Positions 13,970-35,992 of a stretch of 39,601 nucleotides of DNA are shown here, in pieces (the stretch's first letter is position 1; the number at the start of each line of letters is the position of its first letter). The notes under the pieces were generated by a model, which worked only from the letters and a program-made list of their open reading frames with translations, did no database searches and had not been told where the DNA came from. The stretch lies in assembly GCA_011045925.1 (NCBI GenBank), contig DSBS01000044.1, forward strand, positions 1 to 39,601, written 5' to 3'. A program made the position numbers and the translations under genes. Origin of the DNA: Candidatus Woesearchaeota archaeon. GTDB taxonomy: Archaea; Nanobdellota; Nanobdellia; Woesearchaeales; JASKKU01.

Positions 13970-14022
13970 AAACAAAAAAGATTAAATAGTTAAATGCAAA
14001 AAAGGATTAACAAAGAATCAGG

Positions 14023-14484
14023 ATGAAAAACCCAGCAAGAGCCCAGGCAGCCATGGAGTTTATGATTACCTATGGCTGGATCCTGTTTATCGGAGTTGCA
14101 ATCATTGCAGTAATTGCTACCTTTACCAACCTGGATGCACTTGCCTTTAGGGCGCAGAAATGCGAAATATACTCAAGCTTTAAATGCCTTTCATTTGCAT
14201 TAGATTCAAATGGAGAATTGCAGGTAATCGTAGGAAACAGCGCACAGGATGAGCTAACCATTACAAGCGCTAGCTTAATTTTAGATTCAGGGACTGTGAC
14301 AGCAGGTTCAGGTTCTATTCCTTCAACATCATTAAAAAGAGGCACTGGAGCAAATTCGCGCGGAACTATAACATTCAACAATGTAGGCAGGAAAGTTGAC
14401 GGCAAGATTGAGATAACTTACTATTTTGGGAATGCGGATGCTTCAACACATACAGCAGTTGGCTACATATATACAAGAAGATAA
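14023..14484 (+). CDS. Type IV pilin-like protein with class III signal peptide
   Basis: MKNPARAQ/AAMEFMITYGWILFIGVAIIAV is a textbook archaeal prepilin N-terminus (PF04021-like). Cys pair CEIYSSFKC. Confidence 0.75.
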   Translation: MKNPARAQAAMEFMITYGWILFIGVAIIAVIATFTNLDALAFRAQKCEIYSSFKCLSFALDSNGELQVIVGNSAQDELTITSASLILDSGTVTAGSGSIPSTSLKRGTGANSRGTITFNNVGRKVDGKIEITYYFGNADASTHTAVGYIYTRR

Positions 14485-17373: not shown

Positions 17374-20300
17374 TCAACTTGCCTCAGCCTCAAAAACAAT
17401 CCCTGCTTCTTTTTCTCCGGGAGGCTCTTCTCTTGGTACTTCTATCTGGATATCTACATTGACCTCATCCAGCCCTGTGCTGTATTCAAAATCTGAGATA
17501 ACTAAGGTCAGCACTTCGGAAAGGTTAAACCAGCTCATTTTAGAAAGGTCAGTATCAATGCTTCCTAGAAAGATTTCCCTTGCTTTTGCCTGGAAATAGC
17601 TTGTATTCAAGGCCCTTGTAGAAAAGAGCTGAGTAGTGTTCATTAAAATATCGCACCTGATGTTTCCGTCATTTCTAATCCTGAAAGGATGCGGGTCATT
17701 AGTTGAAGTGTTTTTAGTCATCGAAGGAGCAATAACTGAAAAGTTAACTGTATTATTCACCAAGGTTATATTGACAAGCGATTGTATTGTTACTTCAAAG
17801 GTCTCTGAAACATCGCCGTAAGCCTCTCCATCGTGGGGAGTTACATTCCACCTGTAAGTTGCAATATCAAGCTCCTGCACAGGGGTATAGCTAAGGTCGC
17901 TTATTCCAGAATCTGTAACAACCGGCACAGAGCAGTAATCAGGAAGTGAGCAAGCGCCTTCCCTCCGGATTTCTATTGAGTAGGTTATTGGGTCTCCATC
18001 ATCATCTGACGCTGCTTCCCACTCAAATGCTGGCCTTCTGTTAGTTGTCGTGCTTTCATGAGCCGGAAGAAGCAGGCTTCCCATTATCGGAGGCGTGTTT
18101 CTTATTGTGAGATTGTCCGAATACAGCCTCAAAGACTCACCATAGCCATCGTTTACAAATACATCGCATTTCCATTGCTCGTGCTTTGTGGTCATTGAAA
18201 GGTCAATTACATCCGGCTGGTGGGCATTTAAGCCGGCAATATGGTTCGCCCGGATTTGCTCTTCAGTCAATGTAACATTATACATCCTAAAGTCATCAAT
18301 TAACCCATTAAACCACCTTACTGGAGTCTCGCTATAATGGCTTGAACCGATAGTGTGGCTGTAAGCCCCGCTAAGCGTAACTGTTCCTGCACCCTGAGTA
18401 AGAGAGCCAACAATATCCCCATTAACATACATTACAGAAGTATTGCTGGCTCTGTCATGCGTAACAGTAACATGAGTCCATTCATCAGGAGAAATAACAG
18501 AAGCCGCTGAAAGGTCGTTTCCATTATACCTAAACCTCAATGTTCCAGTATTGGTTGAAATCTCAAAATGACAGTTGTTAGGTGTATTTATGATTCCCCA
18601 TATGCCTGAAGCTGAGCCATGCCAGCCTTTCCAGTATACCCAGGCCTCTATAGTTATGTCGCTAAGGGTTGTGCCTGGAGAAAAAGAGTCTGTTGGAAGG
18701 CTTATGTATTGCGTGCTTCCGTCAAACTCATAGCATCCGCCTGAAACGCAGTCATCTCCGGTCCTATAAGCAGGGGCACGGCTCTGGTTGCCTCCGCCCA
18801 AGGTACCATGGTTATCCTTATCAGAGTAATCCCTTATTGCCCCTGACGTTGCAACAGAAACATTTGAGTCAAAGGGCATATTCAGGGCTGTAAGCGAGTT
18901 CTCATCTTTATACCAATTAAAGAGAAATGTCAGGTTTTCCCCATCGCCAGCAGAAACATTAACAGGTGCACATGTCAGGTTATTTCTTGTGTATGCAGTG
19001 CCATTATAAAGCTCCTCTATTTCTATTTCAGAAATAGTCCTGTTGAAAATTGTAACCTCATCAATCTTGCCAAGCCAGTAATAATCATCATCATGATTTC
19101 CCAGGTAAATATTCCGGTTGAAGAAGTAAGAAGAATAATTTATTTTCCGTCCTTCCTGCGCATTAACATACAAGACAGCAGTTGAGCCGTTCATTGTTAC
19201 AGCTATATGAGTCCACTCGGTTGTTGCAGAAATGTCCCCAGAGCCCCAAGGAGTGTCCTGGATTCCCATATCCCAGTTGCCGCTGTTTATTCCAATATAA
19301 AAACGGTTGTTAATCCCGCCTTCCTGGCCAGCGCTCATAAACATCCTGTTTGTGCCAGTTGCTCCCGCCTTAACCCACATAGAGAATGAGTGTGGGTGAG
19401 TGCTTGGATTTAAACCTGAGCCATAGTTAAGGTTCACATAATTTCCTGTTCCATTAAACTCAAAAGCCCCGGCTGCATAGCCTTCCCTGACATTTGTTGC
19501 CCCATTATTCGTCCCATGGTTTCCATAATAAGAGCTGTCTTTAACATCATTATCAAGGTTCCAGTAGCCCGCTACCTGGCTATCAAGCCTGGAGTGAACA
19601 TGAATCCTGGGGTTGTCATGCTCAGGAAGCCTGCTCCAGAAGCCATTTGAGCATACATAATCTCCCTGCACTGTTCCTGTCTCAACACACAAGTTAGACT
19701 GGTTTACACAGCTAAGAGGAGAATTGCAGCAGGCAGCATAATACGTCCCGGCAAGGCTGGTATTTCTTAAGTACTCACCGGAGTCATCGCCACAGCATCC
19801 CAATGAAGTGCCCGGGTCATAACCACCAAAGGAAAAAGACTCCCCACCATTTATCCAGGTTAAAGCCTCGCAATTATTAATATCAGTTGTACAGTACTCC
19901 TCCCCATCATCCCTATCTCTTGCTATACAGCCCATATCGCAGTATATATCGGTCCCACCCCTGCAAGTCATGGGCTCAACATCATCACAATCCTCGCTTC
20001 CTGGCCCTGCACAGTCATACTGGCACCTTGAGGAATTGTGGTCTCCACAAGCTATATTGCCTAGAGATGCATTGCAGGCTGTACAGTTAAAGCACATAAA
20101 CATATCTATTGTTAATCCATACTCAAGCTCAGAGTCGCAATAGCCAAAAGCGCATTCATCATTATCCTGGCATCCCTCACAACCCAGGGGAATTCCTCTC
20201 TGCCAGTAAGTTGGCTCTCCACTGGCTGCACAATACCAGCCTGAATCATTTGCTTCCTCGCAGTTAGCAACATCAATCTCAAACCCTAGGTCAGACTGGT

Positions 20301-21333
20301 TGTTGCAGTCATAAAGATCACCATTCCAGCAAAGCATATGCTGGTAAGAGCTGTTATGCTCTACAAAATTCCCCTCAAAGCAACAATCATTTTCAAAGCC
20401 AGTATCATTAAAGCTGTCTGATACGCCATCATTGCCACAGCAGTAATTAAGGTTTGAAAACCAGACAAAAGGCTCACACCCGTTTCCAGAAGCCTCACAG
20501 TAGCTCTGCGCATCATTCCTGTCGTGGTTAGTAAAAAGACAGCCTTCCTCATCATGGCAGGATTGCGTGTCTGTATAATTTACCTGAGTTACGCAGCACC
20601 ACTCGCCTTCACAGGGAAGCTCACAGTTTGTGCTGTTGCCAAAATCCCCGTTAGAGCAGCTTGCATTGCCAAAAAAGCATGTCTGGCCATCAAGGTGCCC
20701 CCAGCCATAAACATTAGAAGATGTGCCGTTAAGCGCCTGGCTTACACTGCACACTATATTTCCATGATAACAGGTTCTCTCTGTCCCTGATCCAATAAGA
20801 ACGCCGTTTCCAATCAAAGTTGTATTTGTAGCGAAATTTCCTTCATAGCACCTCTGGCAAAGCACATACTTAGCCTCAGAAAGGCTTGCATTAGCATAAT
20901 AAGAATTGTCATCCGCTCCATCATCGCCACAGCATTGTGTCCCAGAGGTAACTCCAGACATCCAGATAAACTCGCAGTTTGTTGCAGTACAATACTCCTC
21001 AGCAAGGTCAGGGTCTTTCCATGAGCCTTGCTCACAGTACAAGATTTGGCCAAAGAAAAATCCGCATTCCCCAAAAGGAAAGCAGACATCAGAAAGCTCA
21101 AAGTAGCCAATGTTTGCTGAAACATCAACAGCAGAAGCAAATGCGCCTGGCTGAAAAAAAGTCATAAGAAACCTTGCTCCAATATCTACACCTGAAAGCT
21201 GTGACCCCTGACAGCCCACCGTAGTTGACTTTACAACAATATCGCCGCCGGAAGCAGTGAACCCATAGGCTAACGAAGCCAGAAAGATAGTAAAAAACAA
21301 AACAAAACCCAACAGCCCTCCCTTGAATTTCAT
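17374..21333 (-). CDS. Giant (1319 aa) secreted Cys-rich protein with two LamG/concanavalin-A-like (Laminin_G_3) domains and Ig-like domains
   Basis: Signal peptide MKFKGGLLGFVLFFTIFLASLAYG. Cys-rich residues ~80-570 with three CCG(D/N)D modules. LamG 1 at about nt 19000-19581 (DSSYYGNHG..FEFNGTGNYV..WTHIAVTMNG..LYVN..GKIDEVTIFNR). LamG 2 at about nt 18229-18846 (DKDNHGTL..YEFDGSTQYI..WTHVTVTHD..MYVNG..GLIDDFRMYN). Many N-x-S/T sequons. Confidence 0.85.
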   Translation of the reverse strand: MKFKGGLLGFVLFFTIFLASLAYGFTASGGDIVVKSTTVGCQGSQLSGVDIGARFLMTFFQPGAFASAVDVSANIGYFELSDVCFPFGECGFFFGQILYCEQGSWKDPDLAEEYCTATNCEFIWMSGVTSGTQCCGDDGADDNSYYANASLSEAKYVLCQRCYEGNFATNTTLIGNGVLIGSGTERTCYHGNIVCSVSQALNGTSSNVYGWGHLDGQTCFFGNASCSNGDFGNSTNCELPCEGEWCCVTQVNYTDTQSCHDEEGCLFTNHDRNDAQSYCEASGNGCEPFVWFSNLNYCCGNDGVSDSFNDTGFENDCCFEGNFVEHNSSYQHMLCWNGDLYDCNNQSDLGFEIDVANCEEANDSGWYCAASGEPTYWQRGIPLGCEGCQDNDECAFGYCDSELEYGLTIDMFMCFNCTACNASLGNIACGDHNSSRCQYDCAGPGSEDCDDVEPMTCRGGTDIYCDMGCIARDRDDGEEYCTTDINNCEALTWINGGESFSFGGYDPGTSLGCCGDDSGEYLRNTSLAGTYYAACCNSPLSCVNQSNLCVETGTVQGDYVCSNGFWSRLPEHDNPRIHVHSRLDSQVAGYWNLDNDVKDSSYYGNHGTNNGATNVREGYAAGAFEFNGTGNYVNLNYGSGLNPSTHPHSFSMWVKAGATGTNRMFMSAGQEGGINNRFYIGINSGNWDMGIQDTPWGSGDISATTEWTHIAVTMNGSTAVLYVNAQEGRKINYSSYFFNRNIYLGNHDDDYYWLGKIDEVTIFNRTISEIEIEELYNGTAYTRNNLTCAPVNVSAGDGENLTFLFNWYKDENSLTALNMPFDSNVSVATSGAIRDYSDKDNHGTLGGGNQSRAPAYRTGDDCVSGGCYEFDGSTQYISLPTDSFSPGTTLSDITIEAWVYWKGWHGSASGIWGIINTPNNCHFEISTNTGTLRFRYNGNDLSAASVISPDEWTHVTVTHDRASNTSVMYVNGDIVGSLTQGAGTVTLSGAYSHTIGSSHYSETPVRWFNGLIDDFRMYNVTLTEEQIRANHIAGLNAHQPDVIDLSMTTKHEQWKCDVFVNDGYGESLRLYSDNLTIRNTPPIMGSLLLPAHESTTTNRRPAFEWEAASDDDGDPITYSIEIRREGACSLPDYCSVPVVTDSGISDLSYTPVQELDIATYRWNVTPHDGEAYGDVSETFEVTIQSLVNITLVNNTVNFSVIAPSMTKNTSTNDPHPFRIRNDGNIRCDILMNTTQLFSTRALNTSYFQAKAREIFLGSIDTDLSKMSWFNLSEVLTLVISDFEYSTGLDEVNVDIQIEVPREEPPGEKEAGIVFEAEAS

Positions 21334-21868: not shown

Positions 21869-23155
21869 ATGCAAGTCAGTATAATCACATTTGGGTGTGC
21901 TTCAAACCAGGCTGACTCTGACTTCATGAGAAGCCTGCTGTTAGAAGAAGGCATTGCCATTAGCGAAGACCCTTCTGAAGCAGGGATTATTATTGTTAAC
22001 TCATGCACTGTAAAGCACCACGCAGAAAGCAAGTTCTGGAAAACTGTTAGAGAGCTAAAGCTTAAAGGAAAAAGAGTGATAGCTGCAGGATGTGTTCCCC
22101 AGGCCGATAAACAAGCAGAAATAAAGCTTAAGAAATCAGGCATTTCGATAATAGGAGTAAAAGACACAGACAGCATCTGCGAAGCTGTAAAAGCAGAGTC
22201 AGAAGGAAAGCATATTGTAAAGAACAACTCTAAAAAAAAGAATCCTTACAAAAAACCCATTACACTTTCAGGAATAACAGGAAAGATCCAGATAAATGAA
22301 GGATGCATTGGCTCCTGCTCTTACTGCAAGACTAAATCTGCAAGAGGAGACTTGATTTCCTACCCAATAAAAAACCTGGTAACCCAAGCTCAATGCTTTA
22401 TTCGCCAAGGTGCAAAAGAACTTTGGCTAACATCGCAGGATACAGGGGCTTACGGCAGAGACATTGGAACAAGCCTGGCTAACCTGGTTAAAGAGATTAT
22501 GATTATTCAGGGAGACTTTTTTGTGCGAATTGGCATGAGCAACCCAAACACAATAAAGCCTTTAGTTAAAGACATTATTAGATTAATGAAAAAAAATGAA
22601 AGAATATACCGGTTTCTTCATATTCCTATTCAGTCAGCAAATAACCAGGTGCTAAAGGGTATGAATAGAAAATATGATGCTAAAACACTTGAGGAAATCT
22701 TCAGGGAAATAAGCAGCTCTGGCTTAGGCATTACAGTAAGCACGGATGTAATCTGCGGTTTTCCTAATGAAACCGAAAAGCAGTTTCTTGATACTCTTGA
22801 TTTTATTAGGAAGATTAAGCCAGATGTTCTTAACATTTCAAGATACTGGGCCAGGCCCGGAACAAAGGCAGCATCAATGAAGCAGCCATTCAATAAGGTT
22901 GGAATAAATAGGACGAGAAAAATAAAGGAAGAGTTCGACAGAATATCCAAAGAAAAGAATAAGGCCTGGGCAGGATGGAAAGGAAAGGCATTGGTTACAG
23001 AGAAAGGGAAGCATGGCACCTATATCTGCAGAAACAAGCATTACAAGCAGGTAATACTAAAAAGCGATGAAAGATTAGGAGAATTCATCGAGGTTGAGAT
23101 TGAAAGGCCAAGAAAGTTTGACTTCTTCGGGAAAGCATTAAACAGAAATGTTTGA
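21869..23155 (+). CDS. MiaB-like tRNA methylthiotransferase, archaeal/eukaryal CDKAL1 (ms2t6A) type
   Basis: UPF0004 N-domain (ITFGCASNQADSD, NSCTV). Radical SAM CIGSCSYC. C-terminal TRAM domain. Confidence 0.9.
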   Translation: MQVSIITFGCASNQADSDFMRSLLLEEGIAISEDPSEAGIIIVNSCTVKHHAESKFWKTVRELKLKGKRVIAAGCVPQADKQAEIKLKKSGISIIGVKDTDSICEAVKAESEGKHIVKNNSKKKNPYKKPITLSGITGKIQINEGCIGSCSYCKTKSARGDLISYPIKNLVTQAQCFIRQGAKELWLTSQDTGAYGRDIGTSLANLVKEIMIIQGDFFVRIGMSNPNTIKPLVKDIIRLMKKNERIYRFLHIPIQSANNQVLKGMNRKYDAKTLEEIFREISSSGLGITVSTDVICGFPNETEKQFLDTLDFIRKIKPDVLNISRYWARPGTKAASMKQPFNKVGINRTRKIKEEFDRISKEKNKAWAGWKGKALVTEKGKHGTYICRNKHYKQVILKSDERLGEFIEVEIERPRKFDFFGKALNRNV

Positions 23156-24112
23156 GAAATCCTTAAGGAAACGCTTTCCATGGTCTTCAGGCTTCATAAG
23201 AAGCACAACCCTGGACTCTTTTTTTTCATCTGCTGGCTTCCATTCGCAGAAGGCGCTGATCTTACCGGCAAATTCCTTAATATCATTATGCAAAGGCATA
23301 TTTGTTTTTTCCAGCCTGTATATTGAAGAGCCAACATGCATATAAGACTTAACCTCAACAAACAAAGGGTTGGCGCTCTTTATCAGCTGTGCATACCTTT
23401 CCGGAGCAAAATCATTAATTCCTTTAATGAGGGTTATTCTTAAGCAGGTTCTTGTTTTTGAATTCCTTTTTTCTGACATCACGCCAAGGCTTTCATTAAA
23501 AAGATTCCATGCGCTCTTTATTTTAGGCTTTTCTATCTCAAGAAAGGTCTTTTCATCAGGTGCAGAAACAGATTGATATAACTGAGTCGGAAAAATCTTT
23601 TTCAGCATTCCTGGGTTAAGCCCGTTTGTAACCACAAAGGTTGTTATTCCCCTCTTATGCAGAGCCTCAATTAATTCAGGAAGAAAAGGATAAAGTGTAG
23701 GCTCCCCAGTAAGGGAGATTGCAAAATGCTTTGGGTTTTGGGCTTGTTTAAGCTTTTCGAGACTGACTTTTTCGTTTCCGCCAAAGCCTGAAAGAAGCTT
23801 TCTTTGCTGTGAGAATGATTTCTCTATAATTGCTTCTGGCTTGTCTGCTAAGTCTCTTGGGATTTCGTCAAAGCCCTTGGTATCAGCAAAGCTCCTCCAG
23901 CAGAAGATACAGCTGTTCTGGCAGTAGTTAACTGAAGGGCTCATCTGGCAGCAGAGGTGCGCCTGAATCCCATAAAAGACCTGCTTGTAGCAAACATCCC
24001 TATTGAGCAAAGAGCGTTTTGTCCACGTACAGATTTTTACTGCAGTATGTCCCCCGGAAAAGCCGTACTGCTGCTTCTTCAGGGTTTTTCTAACCTGCGC
24101 TTTGTCTTGCAT
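23138..24112 (-). CDS. taw1: 4-demethylwyosine synthase Taw1/TYW1 (radical SAM)
   Basis: GHTAVKICTW..CYKQVFYGIQAHLCCQMSPS..C.NSCIFCWR. The start is trimmed to ATG 24112 (the track start is a TTG). A TTTATATT box lies ~21 nt upstream. Confidence 0.9.
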   Translation of the reverse strand: MQDKAQVRKTLKKQQYGFSGGHTAVKICTWTKRSLLNRDVCYKQVFYGIQAHLCCQMSPSVNYCQNSCIFCWRSFADTKGFDEIPRDLADKPEAIIEKSFSQQRKLLSGFGGNEKVSLEKLKQAQNPKHFAISLTGEPTLYPFLPELIEALHKRGITTFVVTNGLNPGMLKKIFPTQLYQSVSAPDEKTFLEIEKPKIKSAWNLFNESLGVMSEKRNSKTRTCLRITLIKGINDFAPERYAQLIKSANPLFVEVKSYMHVGSSIYRLEKTNMPLHNDIKEFAGKISAFCEWKPADEKKESRVVLLMKPEDHGKRFLKDFSNISV

Positions 24113-24207
24113 TTTAAAAGGGATGGAAAAGGAATATAAAACCCTTTTGAAAAATATAAAAGAGAAAGATTTAAAAAGGATATCTAACAAGGAAGCAAGC
24201 CATAGAA

Positions 24208-27072
24208 ATGAAATTAAAAACCAATCCTTTTTCGATAAGAGTCATTACTTTATTCTGCCTCTTTTTTCTTTTTTTATATGCAAAGGCTGCCTATGGTGAA
24301 ACTCCTTTGTGTGTTCCTTCTGAATCTTGCTGCATTGACAGGGATTGCAAAATTCAGGTTGACTGCGAGAATAATAAGATTTGCTCAGGCTCATTATTTG
24401 GGCTCGCAAACTGTATAGATTTCAAGTGCGACAGCCCAAGCAATATAGAAATAATTGACGGCAAATGCGTTCCTTCTAAAAGCTGCAGGCTTAACAGCTT
24501 TATTGAAATCGACTGTGAAAACAACAAAATCTGCAACAGGCTTATTGGGATCTGCATTGAATTCAAGTGCTCAACACACTGCGATTACGTAAGCTGTGCA
24601 AGATATGAAATCTGCATCAAAGGAAATTGTGTGCCAAAGCCTACAGACCCAGTAATGCTTGGCTTCATAACATTAGACTCAATTTCCATAAATGAACACA
24701 GCGCAAAATACAGCATAGAGTTAACCGAGCCGAACGAGATGCCGCGAAATGCAAAAAGCTCACACTTCTGTGGGATTTGGGATAATACCTTTAACGCAGG
24801 CGGCTGCCAGAAGTGGCCCTACAATGATTGTAATTTATTTGATGCAAAGTTCAGAGATCATGTTTTTTTCAGGCAAGTAGACAAAGATAACAAAGATTTT
24901 GAGGTATTATGTAACAAAATGGCAATACGGCCTTGGGTAGCCTTTTGTGACGGGGTAAGCAATGCTTTATTAAAATTCAGTTTATGCGATACAGGCTCAG
25001 GCATTCCTTGCGAGTCAAAAATAAACCTAAACCCTTCTGACAAGTTTACATATCTAGGATTAACCAAGGATTATGACACCGTTAATATTAACCTTGCCGA
25101 CTCAAAAAGCTCAGTTGAAGGCAAGTTCAGCTATGAGTGTGTAACAATTGGAGACATGATTGTTCCTGGCTCATCAAACAGGATGCTTTGCAAAGATGAG
25201 CAGGGGATTGCATTGTATGCAGTAAACCATCTGCATGACTGCGGGCAGCAAGGAGGGGTGTGTGTAAATGGGGTTTGCAAAGAGCATATCTGCATTCCTG
25301 ATGACGCTCTTCACAAAAACGAGGAATGCGACCCCGAAGCAGGCTTATTCTGGGTAACAGACAGCTCAGGAAACAGGAAGCAGGTTTCAAGAGCAGACAT
25401 ATCGTGCATGGATTATGGGCTAGTGCCAAAGGACGGAAATCCCGAAACAAAACCTGAGTGTGACGACTACTGCATTATTGACTTAAGCAGCTGTGTGTCC
25501 GAGGCACATTTCAGAAGCCAGATGTGCGGCAACCACCAGATTGACATAATGCCTTTATCAAAAACACAAGAAGCATGCGACATGCATGAAAGCGGAACAT
25601 TCTATGAGCATCCTTTTGGAGACACCCGAGAAAAAACTATATTGCTTCCTGACAGCCAAAAGCTTTACTGCGGCCAGCAGGCTGGCTTTATTGGCGACGC
25701 CGAACTCCTTAGGTGCTTGGATGAATGCTCAGAGGTCAGCTTTGAGTGGTGCATGGAAGACTTATCTTTAAAGAACCCTGAAGCAAAAGGGGAAAGCGAC
25801 TGTGCTGACGGATATAATGATAATTACTGGCATGTAATCTCAAACATTGATGAATCAATTGCAAATGACGGATACTTTGATATAAGCAGGGTAAGGTACA
25901 ATGAAGAACTTTGCCTAAGCCCAACGCAATGCACTGACTGCCATGACATAAGCTGCCATATGAGAGATGGAAACGGCGGAATCTGCAATTTCATGGAAGA
26001 GCTATACTGCAATGATGGGTTTGACAACAACGGAAACGGCCTTGTGGACCTAGAGGACCCAAGCTGCTCTCCTGACCCAAGGTACAATCCTGACCAGTCA
26101 AAAATTGGCTTTTGCAATGTAAACTATAACTGCTACCTTGACAGAGACAGCCTAAGCGGGAAAACAAAAGAGCTTTGCTACAAAGACGGAGAAATTGTGT
26201 GGGATATGGAAGGGGATTTTATATGCGCAGAAGACAACTTCTGGACTTCCCCGCTAAAGGCAATGGCAGGGCTGTTTTACTCTGTTTCAGACAAGAATGA
26301 GTTTTCAATTTACTGCAATGACTACGGAGACAGGGAAGAAGGCTATGTGGTTGCATACAACAGCAAGACTCCAAGCGGCATGAATACTGGAGACTTCATG
26401 AGGCTTGCTGGCTCCAGCTTTAGAAAAATGTGCGCCTTCTCTTCCGGAGACTATTGGGGAGTCTCTGCAAAGATAAGAGATGTAAACCAGGAAAACAGCC
26501 AGAATATAGCAAGAAACATCCAGAGTGCAATGCCTCTCTTCTCATCTAACAGGGCTGCATGCGATTCTACTGCTGAGAATAAAGAAAGTTTACTGGTGCA
26601 AAGCTGCAACGATTTTGGAGTCTTTATGAATTCAAGGTATGGAATAATTTTCAGGACAAACAGAAACATAGAAAACGCTCCGGTTTTGACCGGGCTTGAT
26701 TATATAAAATCTGCTATCGAAGAGCTTGATCCAATAGGGTCTGAAACGCCGCATCTTTCACAAGGGGCAAAAACCGAAGCCTTTGTATGGAAAAGAAATG
26801 GAGACAAAGAAATAAAAGAAATAATTGGCGCAATAGAACAAATTAACGGGACAGTTTATGCAATGATCATTTACAAAAACATCGACAACTTCGATGAGAT
26901 CTGCAAGGATTCTCTAAGCATGATAAGAATAAGCAGCAGGGTTTACGGGGAATGTTTTGTTGTTGGAAGCAGGGATTACCTTGTTAAGTGGTCTTTTCAA
27001 TATGATGCCGCAGAGCTCCAGGCTTCAAAAAGCAAGTTCAACGAGCTTGTAAGAAATGTTAAAATAAACTAA
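24208..27072 (+). CDS. Large Cys-rich secreted protein, paralog A (954 aa), unknown family
   Basis: Signal peptide ..LFFLFLYAKAAYG/E. Duplicated DCENNKIC...C(I)EFKC modules. CKEHICIPDD..NEECDP, CGNHQID, CNDGFDNNGNGLVDLEDPSC. C-terminus ELQASKSKFNELVRNVKIN. Confidence 0.8.
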   Translation: MKLKTNPFSIRVITLFCLFFLFLYAKAAYGETPLCVPSESCCIDRDCKIQVDCENNKICSGSLFGLANCIDFKCDSPSNIEIIDGKCVPSKSCRLNSFIEIDCENNKICNRLIGICIEFKCSTHCDYVSCARYEICIKGNCVPKPTDPVMLGFITLDSISINEHSAKYSIELTEPNEMPRNAKSSHFCGIWDNTFNAGGCQKWPYNDCNLFDAKFRDHVFFRQVDKDNKDFEVLCNKMAIRPWVAFCDGVSNALLKFSLCDTGSGIPCESKINLNPSDKFTYLGLTKDYDTVNINLADSKSSVEGKFSYECVTIGDMIVPGSSNRMLCKDEQGIALYAVNHLHDCGQQGGVCVNGVCKEHICIPDDALHKNEECDPEAGLFWVTDSSGNRKQVSRADISCMDYGLVPKDGNPETKPECDDYCIIDLSSCVSEAHFRSQMCGNHQIDIMPLSKTQEACDMHESGTFYEHPFGDTREKTILLPDSQKLYCGQQAGFIGDAELLRCLDECSEVSFEWCMEDLSLKNPEAKGESDCADGYNDNYWHVISNIDESIANDGYFDISRVRYNEELCLSPTQCTDCHDISCHMRDGNGGICNFMEELYCNDGFDNNGNGLVDLEDPSCSPDPRYNPDQSKIGFCNVNYNCYLDRDSLSGKTKELCYKDGEIVWDMEGDFICAEDNFWTSPLKAMAGLFYSVSDKNEFSIYCNDYGDREEGYVVAYNSKTPSGMNTGDFMRLAGSSFRKMCAFSSGDYWGVSAKIRDVNQENSQNIARNIQSAMPLFSSNRAACDSTAENKESLLVQSCNDFGVFMNSRYGIIFRTNRNIENAPVLTGLDYIKSAIEELDPIGSETPHLSQGAKTEAFVWKRNGDKEIKEIIGAIEQINGTVYAMIIYKNIDNFDEICKDSLSMIRISSRVYGECFVVGSRDYLVKWSFQYDAAELQASKSKFNELVRNVKIN
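25931..26378 (+). repeat. Copy A of the high-identity collinear tract shared by the tandem paralogs (partner at offset +2923)
   Basis: Hand alignment: 7 mismatches in 157 nt (25931-26087) and 9 in 150 nt (26229-26378). Includes a 68-nt perfect match (26299-26366 equals 29222-29289). Confidence 0.85.
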
Positions 27073-27109
27073 CCCTGATACTTTTTAGTAATAGTATGTT
27101 GAATAGAAT

Positions 27110-30010
27110 ATGAATAAATATAAGAACTCAATCCACCTAAAAATAGCAGCAATATTGTGTTTTGTAGTTGCTGGATTTTTTGTTAGGGTCTCTTATGCAG
27201 AGCTTCCTTCATGCAGTGTTGCCTCTGAATCTTGCTGCATTAGCAAAGGCTCCAGCTGCATTTTAGACATAAATTGTGAAAAAAAAGAGATTTGTTTCTT
27301 TGGAATTGGAACAACTAAAATTTGCATAGAATTTGGTGAAGAATATGATTGCGATGAAAATGGTCCCCTTGTATCTGTTGATGGAAGGTGCTACCCCTCA
27401 GAGAGCTGTAAAATAAGCTTTTTTAAGGTTGACTGCGAGAATGAAAAAATCTGCAGTACTTATCCAATTGAATATTGTGTTGAATACGAGTGCGCCTCTG
27501 CCTCAGAAGAGCCGGAGTGTGAAGAGCACTCTGACTGCGATGGAGACCAGGTCTGCATTGCCGGAATTTGCAAGCCAAGGCCAAAAGACATATTCCTCGG
27601 GTTTATTAAAATAGAACAGATTTCAATAATTAACAATAACATAAAATACACTATTTCCAAACAGGATGAAAATGAGCCCCAGAACATGCCTAACGAAGCA
27701 AAAACAGGATACTACTGCAGGCTTCTTGACTTAACTTTCAACAAAGGGGCATGCAGCTATCATCCATATAACTTCTGTAGCTTGTTTGATGGAAGGTTTA
27801 GGGATGTTGTTTACTTCTCAGATGTAAGCAAAACAAGCAAAAAATATACTGTTGAATGCAATAAGAGAGGAGGCTACCTTTGCATCCTGCTACCTTATCC
27901 GCTTAACCTTGCCTGCGCAGAAAACCTTTGCGATGGTTTTTTCACTAAAGAGCTTTCTTTCATGATTTGTGATACAAACTCGGGGGTTTCGTGCAGTCAA
28001 AAGGTAAAAAAAAGTGGCAGCAAATACGGCACTTTGAATGTCAACTTGGCTGACTACGAAAATCCTAAGGGGGGCTATTACAGCTATGAGTGCATAGAGA
28101 TTGAAAAAGTATGGCGGCCCGGCTCTGCTGACAAGAAAACCTGCAGGGACGAGGAGGCGATAGGCCTTCGTACGGTAAATCAGCTTAAGCCCTGCGGCGA
28201 TGGAGGGGTTTGTGTAGATGGAGAATGCAAAGAGCACATCTGCATCCCTGACGATACTCTACATGAGAATGAAGAGTGCGACCCAAAGATAAACGAGTTC
28301 TGGGTAGGTGGGGAGAGAAAGTCTGGCGAAGATGTTACCTGCATTGATTTTGGGCTTATGCCAAAAAGTGAAAACGATAGACCAACCTGCAGCGAGTACT
28401 GCATGATTGACTTAAGCAACTGCATAACCTATGAGGAGTATGTGCGTGACAGTTGCGGCAATCACCAGATTGACACCTGCGGGATACCTGAGAAATGCGA
28501 CTGGTACCGGTCCCAGGAAAGTGAGTACTTCCACCCGTATGGAGAGGTTAGGTTCAGGACTATAATGCTGGCTGAAGACCACACCACTTACTGCGGAGAA
28601 AGGGAAGGTCTTATTGGAGACGCAATGATGCTTGACTGCAGGGAAGACTGCAGGCACATCAGCTATGAGCTGTGCATGAAAGACTGGTCTGAGGAATACC
28701 CTGAAGTAAGGAATGAAAGCGACTGCTCTGACGGGTTTAACAACAATTACTGGTATGTAATCTCAAATATAGATGAATCAATTGCTGATGACGGCTACTT
28801 TGACATAAATAAAGTCAGGTACAACATTAGCTTGTGCCTAAACGAGACACACTGCACTGACTGCCAGGACATAAGCTGCCACATGAGAGATGGAAACGGC
28901 GGAATCTGCAATTTCATGGAAGAGCTTTACTGCAATGATGGGTTTGACAACAACGGAAACGGCCTTGTGGACATAGAAGACCCAAGCTGCTCTCCTGAGC
29001 TAAGGTACAACCCAAGCCAATCAAATACGGGCCTGTGCAATGTACACTATAACTGCTACCTGGACAGGGACAGCCGGGCAGGCAGGACAAAAGAGCTTTG
29101 CTATGAGCATGGCGAGATGGTCTGGGACAAGGAAGGAGAGTTTATCTGCACAGAAGAAAACTTCTGGACTTCTCCATTAAAGGCAATGGCGGGGCTGTTT
29201 TACTCTGTTTCAGACAAGAACGAGTTTTCAATTTACTGCAATGACTACGGAGACAGGGAAGAAGGCTATGTGGTTGCATACAACAGCAAAACGCCCAGCG
29301 GAATAGAAGCAGGCGAACTGCTTAGAATGATTGGGCCTAACTTTGGAAAGTTTTGTGCTTTCACATCTGGAGAAGATTGGGGCTTCTCTGCAAAGATAAA
29401 AGACCTGAATGAAAAAAACCTGCTAAGCTCTGAAAATAAGGTTCAGGACGTAGCTGCGCTTTTCTCTGCAAATAAGGCTGCCTGCAACAGTGTTGCATCA
29501 GACGGAGAAAGCTCAAGCCTTGAAAGGTGCATGGACGAAAATGTTTTCCTGAACTCAAGATACGGGCTGATTTTCAGGACCAATATAAACCTGAACGGCA
29601 CCCACGCCTTATCAGGCATCGATGATATCAGGAATGCTGTTGGAAGAGATGGCCTGTTTGGATTTTTTACAAATGAGATCCCGCACCAAGAGCATGGAGC
29701 AAAAACCCAGGCTTTTGTATGGAAAAAAAACCAAGATAACGATAACCAAAAAAAAGAGATAATCGGCACTATTGAGGAATTTGACGGAACGGTTTATGCA
29801 GTAATTCTTTACAATAACATTAAGGATTTTGAGCAAATCTGCTCACATAGCCTTAAGTACTTAAGAATATCAAGCAGGACATCCGGAACCTGCCTTCAGA
29901 TTGCAGATGACACCTACTTAGTTACATGGTCATTTGAAATGGACAGCACAGAGCTCCAGGCTTCAAAAAAGAAATTTAATGAGCTTGTAAGAAACATAAA
30001 AATCAATTAG
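27110..30010 (+). CDS. Large Cys-rich secreted protein, paralog B (966 aa), unknown family
   Basis: Signal peptide ..VVAGFFVRVSYA/E. Collinear with paralog A, sharing the same motifs and C-terminus ELQASKKKFNELVRNIKIN. Confidence 0.8.
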   Translation: MNKYKNSIHLKIAAILCFVVAGFFVRVSYAELPSCSVASESCCISKGSSCILDINCEKKEICFFGIGTTKICIEFGEEYDCDENGPLVSVDGRCYPSESCKISFFKVDCENEKICSTYPIEYCVEYECASASEEPECEEHSDCDGDQVCIAGICKPRPKDIFLGFIKIEQISIINNNIKYTISKQDENEPQNMPNEAKTGYYCRLLDLTFNKGACSYHPYNFCSLFDGRFRDVVYFSDVSKTSKKYTVECNKRGGYLCILLPYPLNLACAENLCDGFFTKELSFMICDTNSGVSCSQKVKKSGSKYGTLNVNLADYENPKGGYYSYECIEIEKVWRPGSADKKTCRDEEAIGLRTVNQLKPCGDGGVCVDGECKEHICIPDDTLHENEECDPKINEFWVGGERKSGEDVTCIDFGLMPKSENDRPTCSEYCMIDLSNCITYEEYVRDSCGNHQIDTCGIPEKCDWYRSQESEYFHPYGEVRFRTIMLAEDHTTYCGEREGLIGDAMMLDCREDCRHISYELCMKDWSEEYPEVRNESDCSDGFNNNYWYVISNIDESIADDGYFDINKVRYNISLCLNETHCTDCQDISCHMRDGNGGICNFMEELYCNDGFDNNGNGLVDIEDPSCSPELRYNPSQSNTGLCNVHYNCYLDRDSRAGRTKELCYEHGEMVWDKEGEFICTEENFWTSPLKAMAGLFYSVSDKNEFSIYCNDYGDREEGYVVAYNSKTPSGIEAGELLRMIGPNFGKFCAFTSGEDWGFSAKIKDLNEKNLLSSENKVQDVAALFSANKAACNSVASDGESSSLERCMDENVFLNSRYGLIFRTNINLNGTHALSGIDDIRNAVGRDGLFGFFTNEIPHQEHGAKTQAFVWKKNQDNDNQKKEIIGTIEEFDGTVYAVILYNNIKDFEQICSHSLKYLRISSRTSGTCLQIADDTYLVTWSFEMDSTELQASKKKFNELVRNIKIN
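28854..29301 (+). repeat. Copy B of the high-identity collinear tract shared by the tandem paralogs
   Basis: See the copy A entry. There are no indels between the two tracts (constant offset 2923). Confidence 0.85.
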
Positions 30011-32671: not shown

Positions 32672-33742
32672 TTAACCTATCAGGGTTGAAAAAATTCCTG
32701 TCAGGAAAAGGTTAAGCACTGTAAAAACAAAGCCGGACAATACAATAAAAGCCGGCATATATTTCAGGCCCGCCTTAATGTTCCCTTCCCTGATTATTGC
32801 AATAATCATAGATGAAAATACCGCAGTCAGGAATATTACTACATAAGACATTAAAGTAAATGTTGCCGGCTCTACAGGAACAGCCTCTATTGCACCAATA
32901 GAAAAAAGCCCTGTCTGCTGGACATCCTGGGGAATGCTTGCAGAGTCCATCTTTGATACAAAGCCTTCAAGAACCAGAAGAAACTGGTTAGAAAGCGCGA
33001 ACAGGAAAGGCGACACAAAGCACGCCACGATTACAATAAACATTACATAATTAAGGTTGGTTGCTGAAATATCCTTTTTTAGCTCTGAAGTGTTCTCAAG
33101 CTCTGAGGAAATTTTATCTACAATAGGGGATATTCTTGCTCCGCCAAGCAGGGACTCGCTTAATATCGAAAAAGTCCTGTTCAGGTCATCAGAGTCATAA
33201 AGCTGTCCCAGATAAATCAATGCATCGCCGGTGTTCTCGCCAACTGCGATTCTCTTTGCAACAAGCTGCAGCTCTTTTGAAAGCTCTCCGTAATCCGGCC
33301 TGATTGAATTCCAGAAAGCCTGCTCAAAGGTTGTTCCTCCCTTAAGGTTTTCAGAGACTGACTTTAAAAACCCCGGAAGATTCTCCTCCATGCTTCTTAT
33401 TCTCTTGTAGATAATGAAATCAAAATAAACCATAATAAAGGAAATAACAATAAAAAAGTAAACAGACAAATAAACCAAAGAGACAAACAGGAAAAACAAA
33501 GGGGTAATTACCAGGTTAAAAACGGTTCTCGAAACCTCAAAGGCTTCTGAAATATCCAAAAAGAAATATAAGCCTAGAACTGCAAGAATCATTGTAACAA
33601 AACCAGCAATAAATAGAGCCCCAAACAGAGCAAAAGGAGGATTCTCAAACCCGGCTTTTCTGGAATAATCTGAGAGGCCTTTCCTAAGCCTCTCAGGAGT
33701 AAGCGTCTTTCCTATAATCTCCAGAAACTCGAATTTTGCCAT
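32672..33742 (-). CDS. Type IV pilus/T2SS platform protein, T2SSF-domain (TadC/FlaJ C-half-like)
   Basis: Polytopic membrane protein with one T2SSF-like cytoplasmic domain (LKGGTTFEQAFWNS....LQLVAKRIAVGENTGDALIYL....LLGGARISPIVDKIS). Confidence 0.8.
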   Translation of the reverse strand: MAKFEFLEIIGKTLTPERLRKGLSDYSRKAGFENPPFALFGALFIAGFVTMILAVLGLYFFLDISEAFEVSRTVFNLVITPLFFLFVSLVYLSVYFFIVISFIMVYFDFIIYKRIRSMEENLPGFLKSVSENLKGGTTFEQAFWNSIRPDYGELSKELQLVAKRIAVGENTGDALIYLGQLYDSDDLNRTFSILSESLLGGARISPIVDKISSELENTSELKKDISATNLNYVMFIVIVACFVSPFLFALSNQFLLVLEGFVSKMDSASIPQDVQQTGLFSIGAIEAVPVEPATFTLMSYVVIFLTAVFSSMIIAIIREGNIKAGLKYMPAFIVLSGFVFTVLNLFLTGIFSTLIG

Positions 33743-33752
33743 TTTTACTCAC

Positions 33753-34538
33753 TTATAGGTTAATCACCGGCCTAACCGACTTGATTATGCTTATGAAAAA
33801 GTACTGCACAACTGCCAAAAGCAGAACAACAACCCAAATGAATACAGTAGGAAGAATTATGCCTACGAAAGTCAGGAAAACAAGCGAGATTGCAAACCCG
33901 AGTGAAGGAAGCACTATCGCAAGCACCAGATAAAGCAAAACGATTGTATTAAGCTTTTTCCCGTATTCTTTTATCTCCAGTGCCAGCTCGTTCCTTATTG
34001 AAGCAAGCGTCTCTTCTAAAGTGTAAGTTACATCGGCTCCTGTTTTGAGTGATACAATTAAGGGATAAAGAACTTTCTTAAACTTTGAGGAAGGAGTCTT
34101 TTCCCTTGCCTGCTCTAACGCTTCCTCAATAGGGGTGCCTGTGTTTATTGCAGTAACAATGCCTTTAAAAAAATCACCAGCAACAGTATTGTCTGAAGCA
34201 GCATCAGTAAGCGCCTGAAGAATTGGGATTCCAGAGTTTATCTTCAAAAGAAGGTACCTTCCCGCAAAAAGAACCTCTTTATCCAGCTCTCTCTGAAGGT
34301 GATAAATCTTTAAGTCCAGGGTTCTGTTGTAAAAAGAAACCATGCCAACAAAAGAGGCAAGCAGAATCAGGGGATAGACCCAAAGAAGTCCGAAGCGGGT
34401 TACAAAAGCAAAGAAAAGGGTTAAAGCCAAAGAAGACATAACTGCTGAAATCATGGTTCTTCTCTTGAACTCCCTGGGGCTTATATCCAGCTTTGCAAGC
34501 TCAAGCTTCCTTTTCAGCTCAATTTCCTTAAGGTTCAT
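33753..34538 (-). CDS. Type IV pilus/T2SS platform protein, T2SSF-domain (TadB/FlaJ N-half-like)
   Basis: LLLKINSGIPILQALTDAA....FFKGIVTAINTGTPIEEALEQA....LIVSLKTGADVTYTLEE, flanked by TMs. ATGA overlap with the ATPase gene. Confidence 0.8.
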   Translation of the reverse strand: MNLKEIELKRKLELAKLDISPREFKRRTMISAVMSSLALTLFFAFVTRFGLLWVYPLILLASFVGMVSFYNRTLDLKIYHLQRELDKEVLFAGRYLLLKINSGIPILQALTDAASDNTVAGDFFKGIVTAINTGTPIEEALEQAREKTPSSKFKKVLYPLIVSLKTGADVTYTLEETLASIRNELALEIKEYGKKLNTIVLLYLVLAIVLPSLGFAISLVFLTFVGIILPTVFIWVVVLLLAVVQYFFISIIKSVRPVINL

Positions 34539-35992
34539 TTTTTCTTAATGTCTTTTTTATGGTAATACTTAGATATTAATAACCCGACCTTATCAACATC
34601 ATCAAACTGCTTCTCAACAAGCCAGTTGATAAACTTAGTCTTCTTAGCCACATCTGCAAGAATCGCGCTCTCGCTTAAGCCTGAATAAAGGTTTATCTCA
34701 TCAATAATCCTTTTTGGCTTTTTTGCCATGATAAACTTATCCGTTGAAAAATTATACTGAAAGATTACATTTTCATTTCCGCTGTCATCAATTTCTGCCA
34801 CCTGGAGGGTTTTCCTTTTTCCAGTCCTTCTGTTCCTGAACTGAACCACTATAAGCCCTATGGAAGAAATTAAGTTTTTTGGCAGGTCAATTGGAGGGTT
34901 TGTAAGCCTGTTAATGGTTTCATGGGCGTTGTTCGCATGAATTGTCCCATAAACAGAATGCCCAGTATGCATCGCCTCAAAAAGAACTTCAGCCTCTCTT
35001 TTCCTTCTGATTTCTCCCACCAGTATCCTGTCTGGCCTCATCCTTAGCGAGTTAATAACCAAGTCCAGCATTGTAATCTCGCCTTTTCCTTCCGGGTTTG
35101 CAAGCCTAGTTTCCATTGGAACCCAATGAAGATGGTCCGGAAGAACAAGCTCTCTTGTATCCTCTATGCTTATAACTCTCTGGTTTGGAGGAAGGAAATT
35201 GCTTATTGCATTTAGCATAGATGTCTTTCCTGAAGCTGTGCCGCCAGCAACAAGGATAGAAAGCTCGTACTGCATTGCAAGCCATATCCAGGCAGCAACC
35301 TCTGATGTCAAGGTTTCCTTTTTTATCAAATCTACAACTGTCCAGGGCTTGTCAGAGAACTTCCTGATTGTAAGTGTATTGCCCGTAGTGGAAATAGGGT
35401 ACAATGTTGCATTTACCCTGTCTCCGGTCTTAAGAGTTGCATCCATAAGTGGCTGAAGCACTGTTATGTCTTTTCCAACCTCTCTTCCGATGAGGGTTGA
35501 ATAGTGCCTTATCTTTCTCTCATTCTCAACAAAGATATTTGTTTTAAGCCAGCCATACTGCCTATGATAAATCCATACACAATCCTTTGCGCTGTTAACA
35601 ACAATTTCTTCCAGGTTTGAATCGTTAAGGAGAATCTCTATTTTTCCAAGGCCAAGGTTTTCCCTGATAAGATGATTTACCAGGAAATCAGCTGTCGGCA
35701 TATCAACCTGCGGCAGGTATTTTCTTATCAGTACATGCAGCTCCCTTATGAACTCCTTTTCAATTGCCTTGTATCCCTGCTCTATAGATATATTCACCAC
35801 GCCAATATTAACCTTTGAGACGAACTCTTCCTTAATCTTCTCAAGTATTCCCAGTGTAACCTTGCTTATGTTAAGAATGGAGACAGTGTAAACAGGAACA
35901 AAGTCATCCGGATAAAGGTTAATCCGAACATTCGCAACAAGGTCATTAACCTTGATTTCATACTCATCCATTAGTTTTTCCTTATTAGACAT
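34535..35992 (-). CDS. Type II/IV secretion family ATPase (archaeal FlaI/ArlI / TadA-CpaF-like pilus assembly ATPase)
   Basis: Walker A VAGGTASGKTS. ISIEDTRELVLP. Walker B/Asp box PDRILVGEIRRKREA. His box MHTGHSVYGTIHA. Confidence 0.92.
   Translation of the reverse strand: MSNKEKLMDEYEIKVNDLVANVRINLYPDDFVPVYTVSILNISKVTLGILEKIKEEFVSKVNIGVVNISIEQGYKAIEKEFIRELHVLIRKYLPQVDMPTADFLVNHLIRENLGLGKIEILLNDSNLEEIVVNSAKDCVWIYHRQYGWLKTNIFVENERKIRHYSTLIGREVGKDITVLQPLMDATLKTGDRVNATLYPISTTGNTLTIRKFSDKPWTVVDLIKKETLTSEVAAWIWLAMQYELSILVAGGTASGKTSMLNAISNFLPPNQRVISIEDTRELVLPDHLHWVPMETRLANPEGKGEITMLDLVINSLRMRPDRILVGEIRRKREAEVLFEAMHTGHSVYGTIHANNAHETINRLTNPPIDLPKNLISSIGLIVVQFRNRRTGKRKTLQVAEIDDSGNENVIFQYNFSTDKFIMAKKPKRIIDEINLYSGLSESAILADVAKKTKFINWLVEKQFDDVDKVGLLISKYYHKKDIKKK

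Follow-up and report, generated by a model that had tools for sequence, protein, structure and literature searches.

A tandem pair of cysteine-rich genes and its relatives

The DNA analysed here, referred to throughout as the window, is a 39,601-nt stretch of contig DSBS01000044.1 from a Candidatus Woesearchaeota archaeon, and it carries two same-strand genes, A and B, that encode large cysteine-rich proteins and lie 37 nt apart (Table 1). The exact coordinates bear out the tandem arrangement proposed in an earlier note, which was made from the sequence and its open reading frames (ORFs), and together the two genes account for 5803 of the 39,601 nt (~14.7%), in line with its estimate of about 15%. 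BLASTP aligns the two products collinearly from end to end at 51% identity. The organism label places the pair in the DPANN archaea, in keeping with the note's guess at a compact, probably episymbiotic archaeon. The identical 94-kb contig is present both in the NCBI metagenome-assembled genome (MAG; 'Candidatus Woesearchaeota archaeon') and in an independent European Nucleotide Archive (ENA) assembly; because the copies are just 51% identical and the contig was recovered independently, an assembly duplication, a possibility that the note had raised, is ruled out. After removal of the predicted 30-residue signal, mature A has a mass of ~103.5 kDa, an isoelectric point (pI) of 4.65 and 60 Cys, and mature B ~106 kDa, pI 4.6 and 63 Cys. 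Over the full chains, Cys makes up 61 of 954 residues in A (6.4%) and 64 of 966 in B (6.6%), and N-glycosylation sequons number one in A and four in B.

Table 1. Features of the A/B locus, with positions in the window and residues in the numbering of the respective protein.
Feature	Position	Strand	Residues or sequence	Basis or remark
A/T-rich box upstream of A	24164..24179	+	GAAAGATTTAAAAAGG	29-44 nt upstream of the A ATG; candidate archaeal B recognition element (BRE)/TATA element, by sequence comparison only
Paralog A	24208..27072	+	954 aa	NCBI ENN46_02125, annotated 'hypothetical protein'
Predicted Sec-type signal peptide of A	24208..24297	+	aa 1-30, MKLKTNPFSIRVITLFCLFFLFLYAKAAYG/E	Sole hydrophobic segment; putative cleavage site from sequence
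Duplicated N-terminal Cys module of A	24310..24570	+	aa 35-74 and 87-121, CVPS.SC...(V/I)DCENNKIC...CI(D/E)FKC	Shuffle test, family alignments
Beta-rich variable domain of A, first scaffold domain	24646..25242	+	aa 147-345	AlphaFold2 (AF2) model, identity matrix
Hypervariable Cys-flanked hydrophobic loop of A	24913..24948	+	aa 236-247, NKMAIRPWVAFC	Loop alignment, AF2
Middle Cys-rich region of A, two modules	25243..25797	+	aa 346-530	Cys conservation in 14 relatives
Core of A	25798..26412	+	aa 531-735	81% identical to B, lowered synonymous divergence; putative gene-conversion tract
Single acidic Cys-bounded Ca2+-binding-type motif of A	25999..26067	+	aa 598-620, EELYCNDGFDNNGNGLVDLEDPSC	NF033662, teneurin-4 profile match, invariant columns
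C-terminal alpha/beta domain of A	26413..27069	+	aa 736-954	AF2 confidence 60-80, helix 934-949; alignment
A-B spacer	27073..27109	+	37 nt, CCCTGATACTTTTTAGTAATAGTATGTTGAATAGAAT	T5 run; A/T-rich stretch ~20-29 nt before the B ATG
Paralog B	27110..30010	+	966 aa	NCBI ENN46_02130
Predicted Sec-type signal peptide of B	27110..27199	+	aa 1-30, ...FFVRVSYA/E	Hydropathy; putative cleavage site
Duplicated N-terminal Cys module of B	27212..27493	+	aa 35-81 and 94-128	Shuffle test
Hypervariable loop of B	27860..27931	+	aa 251-274, NKRGGYLCILLPYPLNLACAENLC	Loop alignment; longer and more hydrophobic than that of A
Core of B	28721..29335	+	aa 538-742	Counterpart of the A core
Single acidic Ca2+-binding-type motif of B	28922..28990	+	aa 605-627	NF033662, E 1.5e-5, 24.6 bits

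Secreted Cys-rich proteins without known relatives are common among DPANN MAGs. When A or an 8-sequence profile served as the query of a word-indexed homolog search, A and B alone were returned; the orphan status that this implied was not accepted, since an exhaustive hidden Markov model (HMM) search over 1.84 billion cluster representatives (E <= 1e-3) recovered relatives that it had missed. The HMM search returned 44 proteins, and for just seven of them (P0003-P0008 and P0014) does the alignment extend past the acidic motif described below. Specifically, P0003 (1093 aa) aligns over its full length with E 1e-278, P0004, P0005, P0006 and P0007 cover at least the C-terminal two-thirds, and P0008 and P0014 are weaker. 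The clusters of these relatives are tiny, with 1-4 members, and one bears the name Candidatus Woesearchaeota. When genome and metagenome contigs were scanned, true members turned up only in a few Woesearchaeota-like MAGs and on four JGI metagenome contigs. The members referred to most often are X1 and X2 (P0003), from a sister MAG, and the Y clade with Y1 (P0004), Y2 and Y3 (P0005). We take the family to be confined to a single Woesearchaeota lineage, very rare and previously undescribed.

Several assemblies bearing these or more distant genes (third-party annotation assemblies L002, L003, L004, L006 and L009) are deposited as 'uncultured Methanosarcinales archaeon', a taxonomic label that looks wrong. 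For L002/L003 and L004 the label was rejected as a sign of spread beyond DPANN, because their flanking genes match those of the window at 44-94% identity and the lysyl-tRNA synthetase (LysRS) encoded on L004 falls among sequences from Woesearchaeota and Nanobdellota.

Both N-termini consist of a basic n-region and a hydrophobic h-region, followed by AKAAYG/E in A and VRVSYA/E in B. The predicted signal is the sole 19-residue stretch with a Kyte-Doolittle mean above 1.6 in either protein, and A and B therefore lack a transmembrane (TM) anchor. An N-terminal hydrophobic segment is common to all nine full-length family members examined. Sequence and hydropathy thus agree with the Sec-type signal and missing anchor first read from the sequence; the tripartite signal and the lack of any further TM segment are the features expected of Sec-dependent secreted proteins, and export is plausible. 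No lipobox of the form [LVI][ASTVI][GAS]C was found in A or B, in which the first mature Cys lies five residues past the predicted cleavage site. Lipobox-like signals are present in Y2 (LLITSC) and P0006 (LLLSSC), and some relatives may therefore be lipid-anchored.

Domain architecture and the acidic calcium-type motif

The mature proteins begin with a duplicated Cys module, which was evaluated against composition-preserving shuffles. In A, residues 35-74 align with residues 87-121 at a score of 109 versus 30.4 +/- 6.3 for shuffled sequences (z = 12.4; none of 2000 shuffles reaches 109), so that the duplication noticed earlier is significant there; within B it is weaker (z = 4.5), and the first repeat of A against the second repeat of B gives z = 12.1. 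Family alignments find the modules missing in X1, Y2, Y3 and P0006, and the N-termini of X2 and Y1 hold other, longer Cys-rich modules, the VDCENNKIC duplication being carried by A and B. These N-terminal modules are lineage-specific add-ons. The family-wide scaffold runs from about A residue 147 (LGFITLD...) to the C-terminus. The earlier note had described a diverged N-terminal third as a variable binding head on a conserved scaffold: the N-terminal part is indeed the most variable, but the scaffold already starts near residue 147 and what precedes it is made up of the add-on modules.

An AF2 model built from a two-sequence alignment was discarded, its predicted local distance difference test (pLDDT) score being 29. 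The model from an 8-sequence alignment has a mean pLDDT of 56 and is usable at ~145-440 and 740-954 only: the beta-rich part at 145-440 reaches 70-90, the alpha/beta part at 740-954 reaches 60-80, and the core at 475-735 stays below 50. Foldseek searches with this model (mean pLDDT 56) gave RseB as the best match in the PDB (E 5.6e-3, TM-score 0.19) and a best E of 0.12 in BFVD. The top matches, which comprise RseB, BMC-T shell proteins and type III secretion system chaperones, were rejected as noise, with TM-scores of 0.2-0.4 and none at E <= 1e-3.

The beta-rich domain that opens the scaffold is its least conserved homologous segment, with 42-43% identity between A and B versus 20-30% to the Y clade. 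Within it, a hypervariable loop lies between a conserved C-N-(K/Q)-x-G and a conserved C-D-G. The intervening sequence reads AIRPWVAF in A, GYLCILLPYPLNLACAENL in B, LWDRSCNPDWVPFYT in X2 and YGGCVVGYAGAGAIIGSIIPFFLGPIVGSVVGFIVGGTTCSG in X1, and shrinks to 4-5 residues in the Y clade. All four A/B/X versions are Cys-flanked and share a hydrophobic-hydrophobic-Pro-aromatic tip pattern (IRPW, LLPY, IIPF, WVPF). The X1 version is a 40-residue Gly-rich hydrophobic insert at ~aa 141-181, likewise flanked by Cys (GGCVVGYAGAGAIIGSIIPFFLGPIVGSVVGFIVGGTTC), with a 19-residue Kyte-Doolittle mean of up to 2.18. Structurally, the AF2 model places the loop of A at the tip of a beta-hairpin with strands 230-236 and 252-260 on either side, and its pLDDT is below 50 at 240-246. 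The composition of the loop suggests a surface or membrane-contacting tip.

Taken further, this composition would allow the Cys-stapled hairpin loop to enter the membrane of a host much as fusion loops or pore-former tips do, a role we consider improbable. The hydrophobic character of the loop and the shared tip pattern in the A/B/X clade, set against the 4-5 residues of the Y clade, speak for it, as do the predicted position at a hairpin tip and the Cys-flanked Gly-rich insert of X1, whose composition resembles that of viral fusion peptides (GAGAIIGSIIPFFLGPIVGSVVGFIVGG); in addition, the molecular basis of contact and recognition between host and DPANN archaeon is stated to be unknown (PMC11329633). 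The same insert could equally be buried or serve as an oligomerisation element, however, and since the loop of A is short with little hydrophobic character and that of the Y clade is minimal, the loop does not define the family. Class II fusogens and fusexins (HAP2, archaeal Fsx1) do not occur among the 50 best Foldseek PDB matches listed for the model of mean pLDDT 56, nor was a pore-former matched (best E 5.6e-3, TM-score ~0.2), and the argument for membrane insertion is one of composition. A fuller version, in which a Ca2+- and disulfide-stabilised stalk presents the loop while the tandem copies swap cores and diversify their heads, is likewise improbable. Were it to hold, A and B would be candidates for what starts close membrane contact, or a cytoplasmic bridge, between a DPANN archaeon and its host, with a fold unrelated to known fusogens.

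Beyond the beta-rich domain, the middle region comprises two modules with collinear Cys, C..PD..L...E.CDP...C...C..ID.S.C and CGNHQID...E.CD...C...GDA..L.C...C....C, in which Cys 352, 357, 362, 374, 400, 418, 422, 429, 440, 457, 488, 503, 507 and 515 show 90% conservation or more across an alignment of 14 relatives. Although collinear, the two modules gave an hhalign E of 0.099, which is not significant, and an internal duplication is not claimed. The CKEHICIPDD..NEECDP and CGNHQID motifs singled out earlier are each present in A and in B. Their proposed likeness to myxococcal or disintegrin-type repeats was not upheld: neither Pfam nor NCBIfam gave a match of this kind for A or B at E <= 1, and the Myxococcus Cys-rich repeat TIGR02232, DUF4215 and disintegrin-type models are absent from the 14 relatives (Pfam E <= 0.1, NCBIfam E <= 1). 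By eye, only a loose C-G-N-x-x-(I/L)-D...E-x-C-D pattern resembles those repeats.

The core is centred on a single acidic, Cys-bounded stretch that the earlier note had not singled out and that reads CNDGFDNNGNGLVD.EDPSC at A 601-620. One stretch of A matches NF033662, the 'acidic double-disulfide repeat', with E 1.4e-5 and 24.7 bits, and 13 of the 14 relatives match the same model (best E 3.7e-10). With 24.7 bits for A, 24.6 for B and 39.4 for the best family relative, all stay below the 41-bit cutoff of the model; the motif is shared and membership is not. NF033662 proteins of Myxococcota, the candidate phyla radiation and DPANN carry the same acidic Cys-bounded motif, and the motif-only matches of the exhaustive search belong there. 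Unlike those proteins, which have 3-14 tandem repeats, the A/B family has exactly one, and the remainder of its ~950 residues is unrelated.

The second match to the motif is the C-rich domain of teneurin-4 (7PLP), found with E 0.048 from A alone and with 1.2e-5 over 27 residues from the family profile. In teneurin-4, acidic residues of this domain coordinate three Ca2+ ions, its Cys are disulfide-bonded, and its Ca sites resemble those of thrombospondin type-3 repeats (PMC9058538). Residues 598-620 of A align with it through the pattern E-x2-C-x-D-x2-D-N-[DN]-G-[DN]-G-L-x-D-x2-D-x2-C. The likeness is confined to ~25 residues, and the rest of teneurin is unrelated. Within the match, A and B have Asn at two of the coordinating Asp positions (DNNGNG), where the other members except X1 have DNDGDG; they also carry Ser at the position of D856, and the equivalent of C852 is missing.

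Conservation across the family converges on this region. Invariant in all 14 relatives are G555, C569, C575, C578, D580, C583, C593, F595, E598, C601, D603, D606, N607, D614, D617, C636, C642, C657, C673, W679, C703, Y713 and C742, with E598, C601, D603, D606, N607, D614 and D617 falling in the acidic motif, and 17 further Cys are at least 90% conserved. No conserved His/Ser/Glu constellation was found in the 14 relatives, among which neither His nor Ser is conserved anywhere and Glu is conserved within the acidic motif only; the absence of a catalytic motif, already suspected, thus extends to the family. Such a profile would fit a disulfide- and metal-stabilised scaffold and not an enzyme. 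A CxxCH haem motif in A (C575-T-D-C-H) was dropped, as the His occurs in A only and is Q or Y in other members.

A secreted enzyme or toxin, for example a host-envelope hydrolase with a catalytic domain too divergent to recognise, is on this evidence quite improbable. A ~220-residue C-terminal alpha/beta domain and a ~200-residue beta-rich domain without assigned function leave space for one, and DPANN archaea are expected to need activities that modify the host envelope. The invariant positions, however, are limited to Cys, the acidic motif, Gly, Phe, Trp, Tyr and Asn, and no enzyme was matched in Pfam, NCBIfam, the PDB or Foldseek. A lone match to the SslE metalloprotease, in the distant relative L009, was dropped because it scored 18.8 bits over 50 residues against a cutoff of 3000 bits. 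More broadly, Pfam, NCBIfam, PHROGs, PADLOC, PDB sequence and Foldseek searches assigned neither A nor B to a family, in keeping with the note's reading that no characterised family is matched. Pfam likewise gave nothing for A or B, nor for any of the 14 relatives at E <= 0.1, and neither PHROGs nor PADLOC returned a match that would place A or B among phage or defence proteins.

The C-terminal alpha/beta domain ends in a conserved helix, ...SK.KF(N/D)ELV(R/K).(I/V)KI(N), with the stop codon 0-1 residue past KI in eight of nine members. The ending reported earlier for the pair, ELQASK.KFNELVRN(V/I)KIN, is found in both A and B.

Concerted evolution of the core at a conserved locus

Identity between A and B is distributed unevenly along the chain: it is 35% at 1-146, 42-43% at 147-345, 49% at 346-530, 81% at 531-735 and 50% at 736-890 (A numbering). 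Sliding Nei-Gojobori estimates of synonymous divergence (dS) between the genes are saturated except at about residues 540-730, where dS falls to 0.3-1.1 and amino-acid identity rises to 75-92%. Over the core as a whole (531-735), the two copies within a genome resemble each other more than they resemble copies elsewhere. Identity is 81% for A-B (dS 0.71), 79% for X1-X2 (dS 1.16) and 77% for Y2-Y3, versus 65-70% between A/B and X1/X2, with dS from 1.6 to saturated. Identical nucleotide runs between A and B reach 68 nt (at ~aa 698) and 45 nt (at ~aa 600), compared with a between-genome maximum of 24 nt. The G+C content at third codon positions is somewhat raised in 346-735 (0.50-0.57 versus 0.36-0.47 elsewhere).

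The core thus evolves in concert within each genome. Because within-genome identity exceeds between-genome identity, dS is lowered and long identical runs are present, gene conversion is indicated and not purifying selection alone, and the simplest reading of the sequences would be repeated conversion between the tandem copies in each genome, atop moderate purifying selection. The near-identical core had been taken for a conserved scaffold. High identity between A and B was borne out, but the core is not invariant: it is 33-42% identical to the Y clade, close to the 30-37% of the adjacent segment 346-530, and its likeness between the copies points to conversion. Elsewhere in the chain the copies do not pair up cleanly as positional orthologs; in 736-890, for example, A is nearer to X1 and X2 (59-60%) than to B (50%).

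The genes occupy a fixed chromosomal setting. One gene order recurs in the window, in L004 and in the two sister-MAG contigs (L003 and L002): RIO kinase, KaiC-like ATPase, beta-propeller protein, ~1300-aa LamG protein, small ORF and MiaB-like radical S-adenosylmethionine (SAM) protein, then a TYW1-type radical-SAM gene (-), the Cys-rich genes (+) and an FmrO-like methyltransferase (-), followed by a 588-aa nucleotidyltransferase-domain protein, T2SSF, T2SSF, T2SSE and a ~820-aa protein. Two Cys-rich copies are present in the window, two in the sister MAG and three each in L004 and L043 (1071, 812 and 789 aa), and the spacers between tandem copies measure 18-68 nt. In the sister MAG, one contig stops within X1, and on the other X2 begins 105 nt from the contig end; an assembly break at exactly this locus fits a repeat-like core. 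The metagenome contig L042 carries X1 complete (884 aa; L042:1603-4254), with the start of a second Cys-rich ORF 68 nt downstream whose partial sequence resembles the N-terminal region of X2.

Within this conserved order, the Cys-rich proteins are 46-50% identical to those of the sister MAG versus 61-94% for the flanking proteins, and 30% identical to those of L004 versus 44-75% for the flanking proteins. The ~820-aa protein next to the pilus ATPase is the sole neighbour evolving as fast, at 46% to the sister MAG versus 75-90% for its own neighbours. The window's version of this protein (817 aa; 35985-38438, -), whose gene runs into the start of that for the T2SSE ATPase, drew no match in Pfam or PHROGs.

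A and B might also serve the type IV pilus-like system nearby (pilin-like genes at 13421-14484, T2SSE/T2SSF at 32672-35992) as accessory parts or as part of its tip, in line with a linkage to pilus ATPase and platform genes that is kept in the window, L002, L004 and L005; we treat this as a very remote prospect. The compared genomes are closely related and syntenic over the whole 25 kb, so that the linkage is uninformative; FmrO-like methyltransferase and nucleotidyltransferase-domain genes, unrelated and in opposite orientations, intervene; and the signals of A and B are of the Sec type and not of class III (pilin).

A more distant sister group (L006:1-1725, L009:3569-6778 and P0014) has the middle Cys modules and the Ca-motif core. 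Its C-terminal region differs and ends in ...LYPFNR, as seen in P0014 and L006, and in L006 and L009 the gene is followed by that of a conserved ~470-aa protein with an N-terminal TM segment.

A candidate surface-contact role and the genomic surroundings

The role considered most likely for A and B, at roughly even confidence, is that of a non-enzymatic cell-surface binding or contact protein, adhesin-like and directed at a host cell or another surface. Confidence in the descriptive part of this account (gene structure, paralogy, family, locus and motif) is much higher than in its functional part. In the proposed scheme, A and B belong to a small lineage-restricted family of ~100-kDa acidic extracellular proteins of a Woesearchaeota clade, would be exported through Sec by a cleavable N-terminal signal, and would fold outside the cell into a multi-domain disulfide-rich body. 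From the N-terminus onward, this body would consist of optional lineage-specific Cys-knot-like modules, a beta-rich variable domain bearing the Cys-flanked hypervariable hydrophobic hairpin loop, two Cys-rich modules, a core around the single teneurin/thrombospondin-type acidic motif, presumed to bind Ca2+, and the conserved alpha/beta domain with its terminal helix. Specificity would come from the variable head and the loop, while the conserved core and C-terminal domain would provide a Ca2+-stabilised scaffold and attachment to the envelope of the producer. The tandem copies, two or three at one chromosomal site, would diverge rapidly in their outer N-terminal parts as gene conversion homogenises the core.

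Known systems offer partial parallels. The variant-specific surface proteins of Giardia are a functional analogy, being likewise exported, Cys-rich, multi-copy and fast-diverging in their outer parts with a more uniform remainder; unlike them, the A/B family has no sequence relationship to that group, 2-3 copies only, and neither a TM anchor nor a CRGKA tail. Large extracellular proteins of DPANN archaea, such as LamG giants and the SPEARE proteins of Nanohaloarchaeota, are comparable in organism type, size class and presumed surface role. One such LamG giant, a 1319-aa protein, is encoded in the window and shares with A and B a signal peptide and a high Cys content (61 Cys). In contrast to LamG- and SPEARE-type proteins, neither A nor B shows a domain of the LamG, protease or nuclease type or any other known adhesion domain in Pfam, and no homology to the LamG neighbour was detected.

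The same properties could instead describe an S-layer or other bulk envelope structural protein, a Ca2+-dependent lattice subunit and not a specific binder, which we judge unlikely. A and B are large, acidic (pI ~4.6) and predicted to be exported, they carry a conserved Ca2+-type motif, the fast evolution and lineage restriction of the family are typical of S-layer proteins, and the conserved C-terminal domain could serve anchoring or lattice contacts. Against this, a Cys content of 6.5% is atypical for S-layer proteins, the sequons are few (one in A, four in B), there is no TM or other anchor and no C-terminal hydrophobic segment, and Pfam and NCBIfam return no S-layer domain for A, B or the 14 relatives. 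The presence of two or three diverging paralogs with swappable N-terminal modules better fits variable surface proteins. If A and B were ordinary envelope proteins after all, their value would be mainly descriptive, as a newly defined family and a case of gene conversion from an archaeon with a reduced genome.

Several points weigh against the surface-contact role itself. How A and B would stay on the cell is not obvious, since they lack a TM segment, a lipobox and a known sorting signal, and they could simply be released. The odd Cys count of mature B (63) makes full disulfide pairing within the chain impossible, and in the source organisms, presumably anaerobic, disulfide chemistry outside the cell is uncertain. 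Because dS is saturated outside the core in every available pair, diversifying selection on the head cannot be demonstrated; the overall ratio of nonsynonymous to synonymous divergence is ~0.2. With a mediocre model (mean pLDDT 56, core below 50), the statement that the proteins have no known fold is a weak one.

If A and B do act at the surface, the locus would be a concrete candidate for partner recognition by DPANN archaea, being clade-specific, fast-evolving, multi-copy and fixed in genomic position. To our knowledge, Woesearchaeota have neither a cultured representative nor an identified host. The A/B family also adds one more to the large protein families without detectable fold relatives.

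Upstream of the pair, the candidate BRE/TATA box of A is nearly unchanged upstream of the ortholog X1, and a similar form lies 12-30 nt upstream of X2. From the sequence of the A-B spacer, B could either be co-transcribed with A or use a promoter of its own. The neighbouring TYW1-type radical-SAM ORF occupies 23138-24190 (-) when its TTG start at 24190 is used, 17 nt from the start of A; the public annotation starts this gene at 24112 (324 aa), which leaves a 95-nt divergent intergenic region in which TATA-like boxes are abundant.

Other surface machinery is encoded nearby, including the Cys-rich LamG protein, a beta-propeller protein, pilin-like genes and a pilus-type T2SSE ATPase with its T2SSF platform. 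The LamG protein (17374-21333, -) contains two Laminin_G_3 domains, and its signal ends in ...LASLAYG, with a c-region like that of A. The N-termini encoded by two small ORFs, at 13421-13969 (+) and 14023-14484 (+), look like class III signals of archaeal type IV pilins (MRKSQFSMETLMV... and MKNPARAQAAMEFMITYGW...); with T2SSF/T2SSF/T2SSE at 32672-35992 (-), these ORFs point to a pilus system whose genes lie in separate parts of the window. A 239-aa ORF at 2110-2829 (+) has no Pfam match at E <= 1e-3; it shows an N-terminal hydrophobic segment and a VVSGSMEH stretch reminiscent of type I signal peptidases (SGSMxP), and if it is a real signal peptidase it would process A and B. Finally, a class II LysRS is encoded at 6028-7497 (-). 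Many Bacillota (Thermosediminibacter, Thermovenabulum) are among its next-best named relatives beyond Woesearchaeota and Nanobdellota (~52-54% identity), a hint that the LysRS of this archaeal lineage is of a bacterial type.

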